From the sequence record NC_070985.1: a stretch of DNA of 64,000 bases. One strand, given 5' to 3'. This document shows, piece by piece, positions 1 through 43,244 of the stretch (positions within the stretch are counted from its first letter, which is position 1; the number at the start of each line of letters is the position of its first letter). This DNA comes from Escherichia phage O18-011. The notes under the pieces are model-generated. The model was not told the origin of the DNA. It ran no database searches and was given only the letters and a program-made list of their open reading frames with translations. Both the position numbers and the translations under genes were made by a program.

Positions 1-475
1 TCATCCTTCGGTCGGCATGGGTAATTCTCTTGGGTTACTTCCGGGAGGAATGCGTGAGAAGTTTGAACCTTACCTGATGCCTATCATTGATGTTATTACT
101 CAGCGATATGGTAAAGGGTTCTATGAATGCCAGCTCGGTAACAGTAACATTGAGTTCGTACCTCTGGAATATCTCCGTGGTCGTTCTTTCAATGATGCTA
201 TTGTTATTGTTGATGAGTTCCAGAACACCACTAAAGATGAAGCCTTCTCAATCATGACTCGATTGGGAGAAACCTCTCAGCTGTTCTGCATGGGTGATAC
301 TAACCAGCATGATATGCGTGGTCGTGAGAGTGGTCTTACTTGGGCTACCAACTTTATTGATGAACACGATCTGTATGAGTTCGCTGAGATTGTAGACGGT
401 GAATCAGATGATATTGTTCGTTCTGGTTTCTGTAAAGCCATTGTTAAAGCTATGGAAAAGGAACAAGATAAATGA
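1..475 (+). CDS. phoH: PhoH-like ATPase, C-terminal part (5' end lies outside window)
   Basis: ORF open to window edge; RGRSFNDAIVIVDEFQNTT...GDTNQHD resembles Walker-B/C-terminal region of PhoH-family proteins (from memory). Confidence 0.65.
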   Translation, partial: HPSVGMGNSLGLLPGGMREKFEPYLMPIIDVITQRYGKGFYECQLGNSNIEFVPLEYLRGRSFNDAIVIVDEFQNTTKDEAFSIMTRLGETSQLFCMGDTNQHDMRGRESGLTWATNFIDEHDLYEFAEIVDGESDDIVRSGFCKAIVKAMEKEQDK

Positions 476-657
476 TAGTAGCTCTAGTTATTCGAGATTG
501 TGGTGATGGTTCAGCAACCATCGACTTCTACAAAAATATCGAACGAGCATATTTTGAGTGTGAAGAGTTCAATGAAGACACCTGCATGAATGATGGAGAA
601 CCTACTATCATTGATGTTCCTGATGATTTTTTACCACCGGGAGGGTGGAGTGAATAA
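472..657 (+). CDS. hypothetical small acidic protein
   Basis: ORF track; ATGA start/stop overlap with upstream gene suggests translational coupling. Confidence 0.4.
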   Translation: MIVALVIRDCGDGSATIDFYKNIERAYFECEEFNEDTCMNDGEPTIIDVPDDFLPPGGWSE

Positions 658-670
658 CACTCAAGAGTTA

Positions 671-838
671 ATGATAGAAGAGATTAAAGCTCAGATAGTT
701 GATAAACTCTCTATCAGGGTTGATTCTAAAGACACCAAATGCTCTGGTATATTGAAGATAGAACTTCTTTACAATGGAGAAGTTATTTCCTTTGATGAGG
801 TATATGCCTCTGATATTAAATACTTAGCAGAGTTTTAA
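671..838 (+). CDS. hypothetical small protein
   Basis: In-frame ATG at 671 inside track ORF 590-838, chosen to avoid overlap with previous gene; weak RBS. Confidence 0.3.
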   Translation: MIEEIKAQIVDKLSIRVDSKDTKCSGILKIELLYNGEVISFDEVYASDIKYLAEF

Positions 839-10849: not shown

Positions 10850-12391
10850 TTAGTAGCTCTGATTCCATCTGCTTACGTTTGCCTCATATAAAGAAGCACT
10901 TCCGTAGCTAACATCATGCTTAGAGCGACCACGATGTGTAACAGAGCACGCTGAATAGCGCATTGCATCCATTAAGTCATCATGTTCTTTAATAATCTTA
11001 CCAACCTTACGGTGATATCTAGCTTTCTCTTCGAATAGCTTAGCGTTAGCGGCTGTGTTAAAGACTTTAAAGCGTCCACTCATCATTCTTTCTCGGATAT
11101 CTGTGATTCCCGGTTCTACAAAGAAGTTCTTTTTACCATCCATTCCAATTTTGTTGTAGAAGGTCTCACTCTGTACGTTAACTCCTGCATTCTTATAGAA
11201 TTGAGCAACAGATGAACCACTACCTTTCTCAGTATTGTCCGCATCATGCGGTAGGATGACAGGAATCCACTGACCACGACCATTAATAGCTGGAGCATGA
11301 TACACTGGAGTAAAGCCACCTTCTTTATATGAGTCGTAAACATAGATAGTATCCGTGTTTGCATCGTAAGCTGTCCAAACAGCAGCAGTTGGGTGATCGA
11401 TACCAATATCAATTGCACAGACACGTTTCCACGTATCAGGAATTTCGAATGGTTCACATTTAATTGTGTCATCCGATACATCATAAATCAAACCACTTCC
11501 TAACAATGGCATACCTTTTGAACGCATCTCTAACTGCCACGCTGGAATACCTTCAGTCATATCTTTTATATCTTGGTCAGTGATGTGTCCACCTAGGTCT
11601 GCATGAGCATCCCACCAAGAAGCATTCTGGAAATATAGAGAACCTGTGCTCTCATCCCCTTCACCTTTCATAAATTTATCTACCAGTTCAGTTAAACCGT
11701 TCTCTGGTGTAGCTGTAATTGTAACTAGACCTTTAGTTGTGAGTGTACGTGTGACGCACTGTGCGAATATAGCCATAGACTCGTATGGATCTTCTTCGTC
11801 TAACCAAATGTAGTCAACTGTTGCACCCATCAATGTGTGTTCACCCTGTTGGGTTGAACGGAATTCTAATGTACTTAAACCGTCAAACTCTCCTCTTTCA
11901 TTTTGATGTTTGATTTGTACGATTTGAAGTTTGTTACCATCTCGTTCTATCGTATCAATGACGATAGCATCACGAGGAATGACACCTGTCCCTAATAAAT
12001 TTGTATCCTTTCCGATAGGTGTACCAAACAATTCCTTTTGCAATACTTTCCTTGTGGAATCCCCTGTAATACCAACTGCCCATGCTAAGATAGGTCTTTT
12101 AAATTTGTATCCTGTCCACCAAGTTGGGTAGCGACCTGTGACATGACAAGCAAACTCGTATGCCTCGCTATAAGATTTACCAACACGGTTCGCTGCACAC
12201 AAGAATCTAAAGCGATGCTTCAATCCTGCTGCATAAAATTTCTTTTGGAAGTCATACGCCTTGAAAGACAAAATCTTATTATACTTCCTCCATTGGTCAC
12301 GCTCTTTCAACATATTCAACAGTGCTTTCTTTTCCTCTACACTAAGATTGTTACCAGTTAGAGCTTCATAAATTTGTTTATCTAATGACAT
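10850..12391 (-). CDS. terminase large subunit
   Basis: 513 aa; Walker A-like AANRVGKS, Walker B-like YIWLDEED, C-terminal nuclease-like region; end of virion gene block. Confidence 0.75.
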   Translation of the reverse strand: MSLDKQIYEALTGNNLSVEEKKALLNMLKERDQWRKYNKILSFKAYDFQKKFYAAGLKHRFRFLCAANRVGKSYSEAYEFACHVTGRYPTWWTGYKFKRPILAWAVGITGDSTRKVLQKELFGTPIGKDTNLLGTGVIPRDAIVIDTIERDGNKLQIVQIKHQNERGEFDGLSTLEFRSTQQGEHTLMGATVDYIWLDEEDPYESMAIFAQCVTRTLTTKGLVTITATPENGLTELVDKFMKGEGDESTGSLYFQNASWWDAHADLGGHITDQDIKDMTEGIPAWQLEMRSKGMPLLGSGLIYDVSDDTIKCEPFEIPDTWKRVCAIDIGIDHPTAAVWTAYDANTDTIYVYDSYKEGGFTPVYHAPAINGRGQWIPVILPHDADNTEKGSGSSVAQFYKNAGVNVQSETFYNKIGMDGKKNFFVEPGITDIRERMMSGRFKVFNTAANAKLFEEKARYHRKVGKIIKEHDDLMDAMRYSACSVTHRGRSKHDVSYGSASLYEANVSRWNQSY

Positions 12392-39430: not shown

Positions 39431-39848
39431 TACTACTTCCTCCAGTTTAAGATAGGAAGGACGCCCGTTTAAGCAGCTCTCCTAAATTTAATGAGAATGA
39501 ACTGTAGCGCCTAAACACTCCCTTCATTGTTTCCTTTCGGATCTAGCAGCATCGGCGATTTTCTGCTGTCTATCAAATTTCCAATTGTTCAGGAACAGAA
39601 ATGCTCCTACTGATGAACATCGGATGGTTTCTCTGTTATAGAAAAGGGAAAGTCCCTTCGTCAAAGAACCTCCCCTCTTCACTTACAAGGGTACACTGCA
39701 AAAGAACATCGTGGCAATAAAACTATAACAACCCTTAGATTGCTAATCAGATGATCTTCGACAGCTCCCTGTTTCCTTTAATTAACTCTTGAATAAATGA
39801 AATCTCCTCTATCACTTCTAAGGTTTGTTAGTTTAACGAGAGGATTCC

Positions 39849-40322
39849 TTAAACCTGCTCATCTTGACTATTCGTTTCATCTTCTTCAGAGTTGTCTTCT
39901 TCTGGAGGCATAACGTCGATACCAAGTGCTCCAGTCAAGAAGTCCTTGATTTGTGCATTCAATGATTCTTCGTTGATTACATTCTCTTCCTCAATCTTAA
40001 CTTCAACAGAGGCCGCCTTAGGATATACCAGATCTGCAACTTTTGATGCAGCCTTGAATCTAAGATCAGGTGGAATATTAGGATCTTCGTAAATTTGAAT
40101 TAACACTTCATCAGGAGACAAATGACTTGCAGCAACACGGTCCAACATTAATTGTGTCAGTTTACCTCTACTACCTCTGGGTCGTCCGAATTTATTTCCC
40201 TTTTGAAACTTCCCATTGCTTGGGTTCATACCACGGCTTTCAAGCTCTTCCGTTACTCCGGGTAATCTTCCTGTAATCTCAGCTACCTGTGCAGGCGTGA
40301 GTTCTCCGTTTTCTCCAAACAT
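39849..40322 (-). CDS. possible terminase small subunit / DNA-binding protein
   Basis: KFQKGNKFGRPRGSRGK resembles the GNPxGRPKG motif I associate with phage small terminases; acidic C-terminus. Confidence 0.4.
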   Translation of the reverse strand: MFGENGELTPAQVAEITGRLPGVTEELESRGMNPSNGKFQKGNKFGRPRGSRGKLTQLMLDRVAASHLSPDEVLIQIYEDPNIPPDLRFKAASKVADLVYPKAASVEVKIEEENVINEESLNAQIKDFLTGALGIDVMPPEEDNSEEDETNSQDEQV

Positions 40323-40355
40323 TTTATACTCCTTCTACATTATCAACAACACAAA

Positions 40356-41365: not shown

Positions 41366-41412
41366 ACTTTTGTCCTCTGAGTAAAAATATAAAGGGCTAG
41401 GCATATTTACCC

Positions 41413-41518
41413 CGTAAAGGCCACGTCATCTTTGATGACTACCCTCATACCAACAACCCGTGATCGCTGATGTAAAGGGGACTTCATGTTAAGGCACTGT
41501 CATAAAGGCCATGTCACA
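41413..41518. repeat. three copies of a ~16-mer (TAAAGGCCACGTCAT-like)
   Basis: gTAAAGGCCACGTCAt at 41413, gTAAAGGGGACTTCAt at 41471, aTAAAGGCCATGTCAc at 41503; upstream of the - strand late block. Confidence 0.5.
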
Positions 41519-42010
41519 TTAAGTCCTGTCCACCCACGTACTGAATCTCAACTTACCACATTCCCTACACCTCCATGTTGATAGGTAGAGACCGTGTATT
41601 CTTTCATCCCCGTAAGCTTTACGAAGAAGATAGTAATTGTGCTTACACTTCATCCGTCTAAATACTTTAATCAGATTCATTCTCTACCTCTCTTCTAATA
41701 CTTATTAATTTTATAACTGTTCTAGCAGCATCCATTCTTTGCCAATCAGATAGGGATGTATCATTCATTCTGTCTGAGTGTTCAACTATAAATTTATTCA
41801 ATTCATCAATAACTTTCTGAGTCATATTCAACCTTATATATAAGAGTTTAAAATACAGATTTATAAAAAATAAAGATGTATATATCTGTTTAAAATTCTG
41901 ATTTGACCGAGTGGGGCTAGGCGCTCTGCGGCGAATTGTTAAAAAGGGGGAGTCCTCATTTAAAAAAGGGGTATTGGCAATGCCTTTACATCCCTATCAA
42001 CGTTTCAGCG

Positions 42011-42457
42011 TTTCCCCGTGCTTACTCCCCGTTATTCTTTCCCCGTATATGTCATCTATTACATTACCTACCCGTTAAATTAGTACCCCTTTACTGAATG
42101 GATGAAAGGCTAGCACTGATAGCAAACTAGTTAAGGCTTGATTATAACCATGACAATAATACCGTATTGTTACCATTCAGCTCCCCATAGTTTGAATGTA
42201 AATAGTTTCAATGGTAATGATTATGAGTGCAATAATGATGTATGTATTAATTAAGTGGATGATTGTGTTTCTTTTATTACTTTCTTTTTCAGCGTGCATG
42301 AGCGTAGCGAATGGTCTTTTCTTTTATGAGTTTACATTAATAGTTAACTAATTATTTAAGTGGTATATTATTACCGCACTATCTGGCATGTTTCCCCGTG
42401 GTCTGTTCTGCGGTTGTTGTATGCCCCGTCCTATATAGTAGAAATAGTTTACCCGTG
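42011..42457. repeat. dispersed TTTCCCCGTG-like repeats in non-coding region
   Basis: TTTCCCCGTG at 42011 and 42391, TTTCCCCGTA at 42038, TTTACCCGTG at 42448, plus shorter CCCCGT copies. Confidence 0.5.
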
Positions 42458-42525
42458 GTCGCTTGTCTTCTTTGTTAAGTAGTAGTAAATTGAAGCCTAT
42501 TGATTGAGTGATTGGAGTGATAAAA

Positions 42526-42699
42526 ATGATTATCCTAGTAATGATGGCAATGGCTGTAGTCTTTCCTTTACTTGTTCTAATCGTTTGTGAAGTAGTTGAG
42601 TCGTTCACGGATAGCAAGTTAAGCCCAAGAAACAAACCGAGTAAGTTTACTGGCGCTAAATTTAGTAGCAAGAAAGTTAGAAAGATGGTTGCAATGTAA
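42526..42699 (+). CDS. small membrane protein (57 aa)
   Basis: ATG 42526 after GGAGTGA; hydrophobic N-part, basic C-tail; shares 15-mer GTGATAAAAATGATT at its start with 43529 ORF. Confidence 0.35.
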   Translation: MIILVMMAMAVVFPLLVLIVCEVVESFTDSKLSPRNKPSKFTGAKFSSKKVRKMVAM

Positions 42700-42752
42700 G
42701 AAAGCGTGTCCTATTATATCCCTATCTATTACATATCAATGAGGCTTCACAA

Positions 42753-43244
42753 ATGACTAAACCGATGCAGATGATTAATCTGGCAAGTTATGCGCTAGTC
42801 GCCGCGATCGGTGTTAGTGCGCTGGTCACATCTCTTTCTGATAAGGCTATCGCTGGCCCTACTTCTGCAACTAATGCCGCTGATGTTTTCGCTAGTTCCA
42901 TCAATAAAGGTTGGATGATTTGCAACGGTGCGGATAGTGATGGAAGTGCTATTGTGTTAAAAGTGAAATTTAGTAACGTTACCAGTGAAGGCGTTCTCTT
43001 TCAATCTAAGACGTTGGATAATCAGCCTAACAGTGATCTAGTTCTCAAGCGTACTGATAATGATTCTGATATGGTGACGTATGGCACTGTAAAACGTTAC
43101 GAAGACGTTAAAGCTGTAACCAATCTAGTGAGTTATGGCCCGGTTAAAAAGTCGATGATCGCCACCACGGTTTACAATAATGCTGATAATGCTGTTTATA
43201 CCGTTTACATTAATTTAGCCAACTGCATCAAGGCCAGCAAATAA
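42753..43244 (+). CDS. secreted/periplasmic protein, function unknown
   Basis: Signal-peptide-like N-terminus MINLASYALVAAIGVSALVTSLSDKAIA; G/C-richer codons than neighbours. Confidence 0.5.
   Translation: MTKPMQMINLASYALVAAIGVSALVTSLSDKAIAGPTSATNAADVFASSINKGWMICNGADSDGSAIVLKVKFSNVTSEGVLFQSKTLDNQPNSDLVLKRTDNDSDMVTYGTVKRYEDVKAVTNLVSYGPVKKSMIATTVYNNADNAVYTVYINLANCIKASK

Follow-up and report, generated by a model that had tools for sequence, protein, structure and literature searches.

An oriented CCCGT array at the terminal-repeat junction of a Kuravirus genome and its possible role in DNA packaging

Short direct repeats clustered in a non-coding junction of a phage genome raise the question of which machinery, if any, reads them. 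Such a cluster lies in a stretch of 64,000 nucleotides from Escherichia phage O18-011 (sequence record NC_070985.1; hereafter the window, whose positions and strands are used throughout), where a preliminary description had reported at least seven CCCCGT-type copies beside an A/T-rich tract and had proposed an origin of replication with iterons, a packaging site or the region holding the physical genome ends. Here, the cluster is described as an oriented array of the core CCCGT, divided between a direct terminal repeat (DTR) and the adjoining early-end leader. Sequence comparison shows that the array is genuine, has a single orientation and persists while the surrounding sequence turns over, and a role in DNA packaging is the reading that we tentatively favour.

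The junction and its direct terminal repeat

The interval 41400-42900 matches 96 phage records, almost all from phiEco32-group phages (Kuravirus, Gordonclarkvirinae) of Escherichia or Shigella, with MN05, 172-1, PE006 and NJ01 as the best matches at 82-88% identity. The gene order agrees with that of the phiEco32 group: homologs of phiEco32 gp1, gp4, gp5 and gp6, followed by the portal gene, run leftward on the minus strand from 41831, and small early genes run rightward on the plus strand from ~42526, with a 163-aa early protein on the right of the junction. The flagged interval is the non-coding junction between the starts of these two divergently transcribed blocks, rather than the end of the virion block at which it had originally been placed.

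The core of this junction is a DTR of 193 bp (41919-42111). When 41919-42111 was searched against 50,697 phage records, 89 matched and 64 of these covered at least 80% of the 193 bp. In phiEco32, whose record is linear, the two ends carry an exact 193-bp repeat; in the alignment, 42111 corresponds to the first phiEco32 base and 41919 to the last, an interval of exactly 193 bp, and the identity between phiEco32 1-233 and window 42111-41879 is 81%. At least eight linear records (phiEco32, SU10, WFI101126, YF01, Paul, CHD5UKE1, IMEP8 and LAMP) begin at the homolog of 42111, and the records of ES17, IME267 and KM01 start one base away from it. IMEP8 and LAMP match the DTR over positions 1-193, and YF01, Paul and LAMP annotate it as a DTR or repeat_region. 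The termini of relatives have been mapped by restriction profiling, primer walking and subcloning in phiEco32, by a sharp read drop-off at both repeat boundaries in SU10, indicating blunt ends, by full-length nanopore reads in YF01 and by PhageTerm in Paul (PMC4281155, PMC9965538, PMC7881722). In an alignment of 14 kuravirus genomes, conservation is high across the DTR and drops abruptly to the right of 42111/42112 (at 42117-42180).

Both boundaries have the form GGCT/AG (the slash marking the boundary). The early-end boundary (41915-41920, cut at 41918/41919) is kept in 12 of the 13 aligned genomes that cover it, and the late-end boundary (42108-42113, cut at 42111/42112) is placed by the alignment and the record starts. 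Full-length homology, the boundaries (by homology only) and the position between the gp1/TerS side and the last early gene all identify the element as a member of the already known Kuravirus DTR family, and we regard its identity and its boundaries, drawn from the mapped termini of relatives, as highly probable. The earlier proposal that the region holds the physical genome ends was thus borne out, as it contains the homolog of the mapped 193-bp DTR of phiEco32, SU10, YF01 and Paul. Since the window has only one DTR copy, the assembly is permuted and the repeat collapsed; judged by its sequence, the stretch is a Kuravirus (phiEco32-like) genome with its terminal repeat reduced in this way to one copy. 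In virion DNA, the DTR would be expected at both ends, and its boundaries would be the two physical termini: in the window orientation, the mature genome would start at 41919, pass through the DTR into the early genes, and end after the late genes with a second DTR copy finishing at 42111.

The most conserved DTR block (41939-41982) consists of the G-run direct repeats TTAAAAAGGGGG (41939-41950) and TTAAAAAAGGGG (41960-41971), followed by GGCAATGCC. Such a block is already known, as CCCTTTTTTA-10 nt-CCCTTTTTTA in SU10 (PMC4281155) and as DTR positions 130-170 conserved among 30 phages (PMC9965538), and both the internal CCCTTTTTTA repeats and these conserved positions are present here. The DTR thus resembles that of phiEco32 in homologous sequence, length, boundary type and location between gene 1 and the last early gene, and differs in that one collapsed copy stands mid-assembly with its termini placed by homology. 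The right half of the DTR (42005-42095) holds the first cluster of CCCGT motifs and then TACCCCTTTAC (42085-42095, plus strand), which is conserved and forms an inverted repeat (I2, 17 nt, 82% complementary) with the G-run at 41963-41973. An AAAGGGG element is found ~22-28 nt inside each terminus in inverted orientation (41915-41950 and 42085-42113). Read inward, both mature termini would show AG(G/C)C and then AAAGGGG at 22-28 nt, an imperfect terminal inverted symmetry, and phiEco32 has the same arrangement, AGCC...AAAGGGG, at both ends. Folded as single-stranded DNA, the DTR gave no evidence of structure (z = -0.21 vs shuffles).

A scan of IMG/VR with AAAGGGGGAGTCCTCA recovered KBNP1711, ECBP2 and two viral contigs of 88-90 kb (L018 and L027), in which tblastn of eight window proteins found no homologs. 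Both contigs retain AAAAGGGGGAGTCCTCAT with AGGC before it, and L018 also has TACCCCTTTAC. As side observations, L018 1-400 and L027 ~300-700 (minus strand) share with kuraviruses, in the same order, T/AGGC..AAAAGGGGGAGTCCTCAT, C-run motifs (CCCCACGT, CCCGTAT), CCCCTTTA and the T-rich ...CTTTCAG tract; a second GTGA(T/A)/AGGCG occurs ~285 bp downstream and may delimit a longer terminal repeat in these contigs. The only phage-record match of this region is a 65-bp hit in Salmonella phage SeKF_80.

The CCCGT array and its conservation across genera

Within 41919-42460, CCCGT occurs seven times on the plus strand and never on the minus strand, vs 0.16 copies expected per strand (Poisson P = 5e-10), which agrees with the count of at least seven clustered copies in the preliminary description, although only two of them are exact TTTCCCCGTG. 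Four of the seven are within one mismatch of TTTCCCCGTG, and these four, all on the plus strand, are the only matches at that threshold in the entire 64 kb. For the relaxed motif CCC[GA]T, eight copies were found in 702 bp vs 1.8 expected, a number reached by none of 2000 dinucleotide-preserving shuffles. YCCCGT is not over-represented over the whole window (24 found vs 23 expected), so that the signal consists of clustering and single orientation.

The copies had been described as one repeat region; the region is real, but it falls into two clusters in different elements, the DTR and the early-end leader, a division that had gone unseen. Cluster A (42011-42077, plus strand) is located within the DTR, 34-100 bp inside the late-gene-end boundary, and comprises four copies of the CCCGT core with start-to-start spacings of 14, 13 and 30: R1 TTTCCCCGTG (42011-42020), R2 CTCCCCGTTA (42025-42034), R3 TTTCCCCGTA (42038-42047) and R4 CTACCCGTTA (42068-42077). 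Cluster B (42391-42457, plus strand) is located in the unique early-end leader, 280-350 bp beyond the DTR, and comprises R6 TTTCCCCGTG (42391-42400), R7 TGCCCCGTCC (42422-42431) and R8 TTTACCCGTG (42448-42457), with spacings of ~30 and 27. Two more CCCCGT copies in the same (plus) orientation were observed at the leftward small genes (41407-41416 and 41605-41613), the CCCCGT of the former (41410-41415) being just downstream of a 49-aa open reading frame (ORF) and that of the latter (41608-41613) inside the gp1-like ORF; the copy at 41608 is kept in phiEco32, KBNP1711 and ECBP2, possibly merely as coding sequence.

The two-cluster, one-orientation array was found at the same places in all 15 genomes compared from three genera, with 7-11 copies on the plus strand and 0-2 on the minus strand. 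KBNP1711 (Nieuwekanaalvirus) and ECBP2 (Suseptimavirus) have longer DTRs, of ~200 and 245 bp as judged by the boundary motifs, and in the array half of the DTR the window, KBNP1711 and ECBP2 share only 51-60% identity with one another. Each of these two phages nevertheless carries 4-6 CCC[GA]T in the DTR and four more at 280-350 bp past its end, on the same strand and with different spacing. In the shuffle test, none of 2000 shuffles reached the observed number for the window, KBNP1711 or ECBP2, and all or nearly all shuffles were exceeded in five genomes. The core itself varies: cluster A of ECBP2 is mostly CCCAT (CTACCCAT three times) with cluster B remaining CCCGT, and in Bas92-94 the core is CCCGTG and the positions are shifted. 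The out-group Salmonella phage 7-11, with no DTR in its record and no comparable array in 2.8 kb of junction, is uninformative on this point. Because the array is kept despite 51-60% identity between genera, the motif itself appears to be under selection; core, orientation and location are retained and flanks, spacing and copy number are free, the pattern expected of protein recognition sites. The preliminary description had staked its proposals on where the termini map and on whether relatives carry the repeats, and both observations went its way: the termini map here by homology, and the repeats are present in relatives.

The array is not mentioned in the kuravirus literature searched (including PMC4281155 and PMC9965538, with Savalia 2008 and Pavlova 2012 outside that search). 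As far as we have found, it is undescribed, but it is an ordinary kind of feature.

A tentative role in packaging

Our favoured reading, to which we give somewhat less than an even chance, is that the junction is a concatemer junction and that the oriented CCCGT array provides docking sites for the packaging machinery. Several observations favour it. First, the array stands at the terminase cut sites, with cluster A next to the late-end boundary. Second, a TerS-like protein that could read the junction signals is conserved in the three genera: the candidate gene (39849-40322, minus strand) is the homolog of phiEco32 gp6, its product is 97% identical to phi32_6 with a weak match to DUF5681, and it is 91-97% identical across the genera that carry the array. 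The gp6-like protein has been assigned as a PaP3-like TerS by HHpred (PMC9965538), and PaP3-type TerS is a nonamer with nine copies of the helix-turn-helix (HTH) motif and sequence-specific DNA binding. Third, the shared GGCT/AG boundaries and the inverted AAAGGGG elements would suit staggered nicks on opposite strands and duplication by strand displacement.

In the mechanism that we propose, the multi-HTH ring of the PaP3-like TerS would bind the CCCGT array on the concatemer beside the 42111/42112 cut, and the large terminase would then nick both DTR boundaries. Strand displacement would produce the second copy of the 193 bp, and the DNA would be packaged in the direction of the late genes. 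By analogy with T7, in which the early end enters first and is packaged last, the end with cluster A would be packaged first.

The T7 junction offers the closest anatomical parallel. Kuraviruses and T7 both package from concatemers with short exact DTRs, and in both a motif of 5-7 bp, confined to one strand, is repeated within the DTR and in the non-coding DNA that precedes the early promoters. In T7, CCTAAAG is found three times in the 160-bp DTR and eight times at 175-338, before phiOL and A1, and the related CCTAA[AG]G is found four times before the right DTR, all copies on one strand; the 3 + 8 copies of T7 compare with 4 + 3 in the window, all on the plus strand. The names SRL and SRR (Dunn and Studier 1983) refer to these repeats, and we know of no established function for them. 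CCCGT and CCTAAAG, however, have no sequence similarity, so the analogy is one of anatomy and does not extend to common descent, and copies flank the DTR on both sides in T7 but the non-coding copies of the window are confined to the early side. A further difference is the part taken in T7 packaging by the phage's own RNA polymerase, an enzyme that kuraviruses lack (PMC4281155).

Other packaging systems supply partial likenesses. The lambda cosB R sites and the SPP1 pacL/pacR boxes are repeated short TerS recognition elements, and like the array they consist of several short, similarly oriented elements next to a terminase cut. Their reader is, as with PaP3-type TerS, an oligomeric ring with many HTH motifs, a reader suggested here by proximity and TerS conservation; on the other hand, DTR packagers make two staggered cuts instead of a cos nick pair or a headful series. 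Pseudomonas phage LUZ24, which has a PaP3-type TerS, carries a 184-bp DTR full of C/G runs (CCCCTAG, GGGGGTGG, GAGTCCCCC); the motif is different and provides no direct link to the CCCGT array, but DTRs of phages with PaP3-type TerS may share a C/G-run grammar.

Several points weigh against a packaging role. The deepest-conserved part of the DTR is the G-run block AAAAGGGGGAGTCCTCAT, retained even in L018 and L027, and not the CCCGT array, which makes that block at least as good a candidate for the site that the terminase recognises. Within Kuravirus, the cores are no better conserved than the spacers (0.93 vs 0.90), a contrast that is absent because the whole DTR is conserved there. No covariation between TerS and motif variants is visible, which neither helps nor excludes TerS, since the protein is 91-97% identical in all motif classes. 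The CCCAT of cluster A and the CCCGT of cluster B in ECBP2 leave a single reader of both clusters unassured. Cluster B stands 280-350 bp from the proposed initiation cut, on the side that would not be packaged, and a conserved promoter-like element lies just upstream of it, a setting that fits a transcriptional role equally well. Finally, the packaging direction and the first-entering end are assumptions carried over from T7. The packaging site of the preliminary description therefore survives as a plausible and preferred interpretation of the array that we infer from these comparisons, with the G-run block as the rival candidate. A more specific version, in which the CCCRT array would be the docking site of the PaP3-type TerS, with the G-run block and GGCT/AG as the putative nuclease part, is possible but doubtful.

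Alternative explanations

The strongest rival is a transcriptional role for cluster B. Under this explanation, cluster B, or perhaps the whole array, would be a set of operator or roadblock sites controlling the early end, or would belong to a 5' leader for attenuation or antitermination of early transcripts from a promoter at 42361-42369; we consider it unlikely. The promoter in question is a predicted extended -10 element, TGgTATATT (plus strand), which is conserved in Kuravirus, KBNP1711 and ECBP2, and thus in three genera, and cluster B starts 25 nt downstream of it. A terminator-like hairpin with a T-rich run (42396-42413) overlaps R6, as does the near-invariant GTGGTCTGTTCTGCGG, and in L018 and L027 a CCCGT sits 7-8 nt upstream of a TTGACA hexamer. 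However, the promoter is a consensus match only, in a region with fewer promoter-like sites than shuffles (3 vs 4.9), and published promoter tables give only the downstream TTGACA promoter at the early end (SU10 Table S2). Cluster A, for its part, has no upstream promoter and belongs to a repeat found at both genome ends. Folded as RNA, the leader is no more stable than shuffles (z = +0.36), and an Rfam scan of 41600-42800 returned no match above noise (best E = 0.66). The hairpin at 42396-42413 was rejected as an RNA element, as relatives show only one-sided or breaking changes and none that are compensatory.

An origin of replication, in which CCCGT copies would be initiator-bound iterons and the A/T-rich tracts at 41700-41900 and 42150-42370 the unwinding elements, is distinctly unlikely. 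The site does resemble an iteron origin in that clustered direct repeats of the same orientation adjoin tracts of 27-30% GC at a non-coding divergent junction, and a local minimum of the cumulative GC skew falls at ~42000-42150. Yet the skew turns where the genes change orientation, and it does not count as independent evidence for an origin. The core of 5-6 bp (the longest family has 14 nt in three copies) is far shorter than typical iterons of 17-22 bp, the spacing is irregular (12-32 bp) and differs between genera, and half of the array falls within a terminal repeat that is present at both genome ends. None of the eight neighbouring ORFs has a replication-initiator domain (Pfam, PHROGs), and no DnaA-box-like repeat was noticed on reading the junction, of which no formal scan was made. 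The group is also thought to replicate in T7 style via concatemers (PMC4281155, PMC9965538). The iteron origin suggested in the preliminary description thus found no specific support.

Even less probable is a DNA entry signal, by which the repeat and leader, as the part of the genome that enters the cell first, would carry sites at which the leading end is held or pauses before early transcription draws in the remainder. With the early-end terminus on one side and the first early promoter on the other, the array is placed as the T7 repeats are, and all its copies have one orientation; the idea has analogies in the repeat-rich injection-stop region of T5 and in the ~850 bp of T7 that enter first. 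Against this, the first-entering end of a kuravirus genome is an assumption from T7, cluster A would be present at both ends, and two-step entry was not found in the kuravirus literature covered. Least credible of all is that the array has no function and reflects a C-rich composition or local duplications within fast-evolving non-coding DNA: recent duplications do occur in the region and the Kuravirus cores do not stand out from their spacers, but in five genomes none or almost none of the dinucleotide-preserving shuffles match the enrichment, and core and orientation persist through changes of copy number and spacing at 51-60% identity in three genera.

Other features of the junction and its surroundings

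The early-end leader extends from 42112 to ~42690, is non-coding and opens with a variable stretch. A conserved leader block (42181-42258, plus strand) follows, opening with a solitary CTCCCCATAG, including AATAATGATGTATGTATTAATTAAGTGG and conserved in the three genera, and next to it is a variable T-rich tract (42260-42335, plus strand) with the conserved core CTTTCTTTTTCAGCGT, which is rich in insertions and deletions among relatives. The blocks 42231-42258 (AATAATGATGTATGTATTAATTAAGTGG) and 42350-42413 (AATTATTTAAGTGGTATATTATTACCGCA...GTGGTCTGTTCTGCGG) were observed to be near-invariant in the three genera and to share ATTAAGTGG/ATTTAAGTGG (direct repeat D10). The promoter scan also predicted TTAACT-16-TATTAT at 42344-42371 and a sigma-70 early promoter candidate, TTGCAA-17-TATTAT (42689-42717, plus strand), a homolog, by position, of the promoter published for SU10/phiEco32 upstream of the last early gene. 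The consensus of the phage sigma factor (gp36), TAATGTATA, has only a non-conserved one-mismatch match in the junction, on the minus strand at 42331-42339; good copies elsewhere in the window are found at 848, 7060, 7132, 17091 and 34117, in addition to one with a single mismatch at 40334 (TAATGTAGA). The first small early-side ORF (42526-42699, plus strand; 57 aa) has a hydrophobic N-terminus and matches phrog_7482 at 6e-13, and it is annotated in MN05, NJ01, Bas93 and Bas94.

On the other side of the DTR, the A/T-rich tract with short inverted repeats at 41800-41900 was recovered as previously described, with a GC content of 27-29%. It belongs to the upstream region of the leftward small genes (41832-41918), and the bulk of it is a tandem duplication of 42 bp (41837-41862 and 41879-41904), missing from phiEco32 and at least partly common to MN05, 172-1, PE006 and NJ01. 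The duplication carries a two-mismatch look-alike of the gp36 promoter, AGATGTATA, directed into the DTR, and a sigma-70 promoter has been proposed in the A/T-rich region 41832-41918 (SU10 Table S2). The gp1-like 53-aa protein beside the repeat (41519-41680, minus strand) shows a CxH...CxxC pattern, which hints at a small zinc ribbon; its conservation is 88-98% in most relatives and ~60% in phiEco32, SGF2 and PGN6866, and it is a possible candidate for a DNA-binding protein.

A stop-free plus-strand frame runs across the DTR (41901-42078; FDRVGLG...SPCLLPVILSPC...) and has 58-92 aa in 12 of the 14 aligned genomes. A protein-coding gene was rejected, with variable columns falling 31/30/19 on codon positions 1/2/3 and no Shine-Dalgarno sequence before the GTG at 41911. 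The coding interpretation is also countered by 1-nt length variation in A/T runs, seen in SU10 reads (PMC4281155). The open frame is probably a by-product of a purine-poor strand. In the VTCCBPA_211 record, a coding sequence (CDS) is annotated on the opposite strand within the repeat.

The gene for TerL, the large terminase, is not between the TerS-like and portal genes, its place in phiEco32, where the stretch 39435-39637 is found instead. The matches of ~90 relatives to the window stop at this phiEco32-type site, which still has taaactggaggaagt, the ribosome-binding site of TerL, as well as the terminator downstream, and includes ~170-200 bp without a blastn match in the 50,697 phage records. 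The exact TerL CDS, with 99.4% amino acid identity to phiEco32 TerL, is found 27 kb off at 12391..10850 (minus strand), after a terminator and without an obvious ribosome-binding site, and its breakpoints are the CDS start and stop. A natural rearrangement could account for this displacement, as could engineering of the phage, a misassembly or editing of the sequence.

Implications for kuravirus biology

The genome ends could be placed to the base (41919 and 42111) without wet-lab work, which is useful for annotation and engineering, and the junction was split into separable parts, namely the boundary hexamers, the G-run block, the oriented CCCGT array and the conserved early leader. Even for T7, no settled account exists of the recognition, cutting and duplication of short exact terminal repeats. 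If the CCCRT array did serve as the docking site of the PaP3-type TerS, kuraviruses would offer a simple, sequence-defined system for all three steps. The parallel with the CCTAAAG repeats of T7 suggests that oriented short-motif arrays may be a general part of DTR-type concatemer junctions, and kuraviruses, as they lack a phage RNA polymerase, would be the cleaner system in which to ask what such arrays do.

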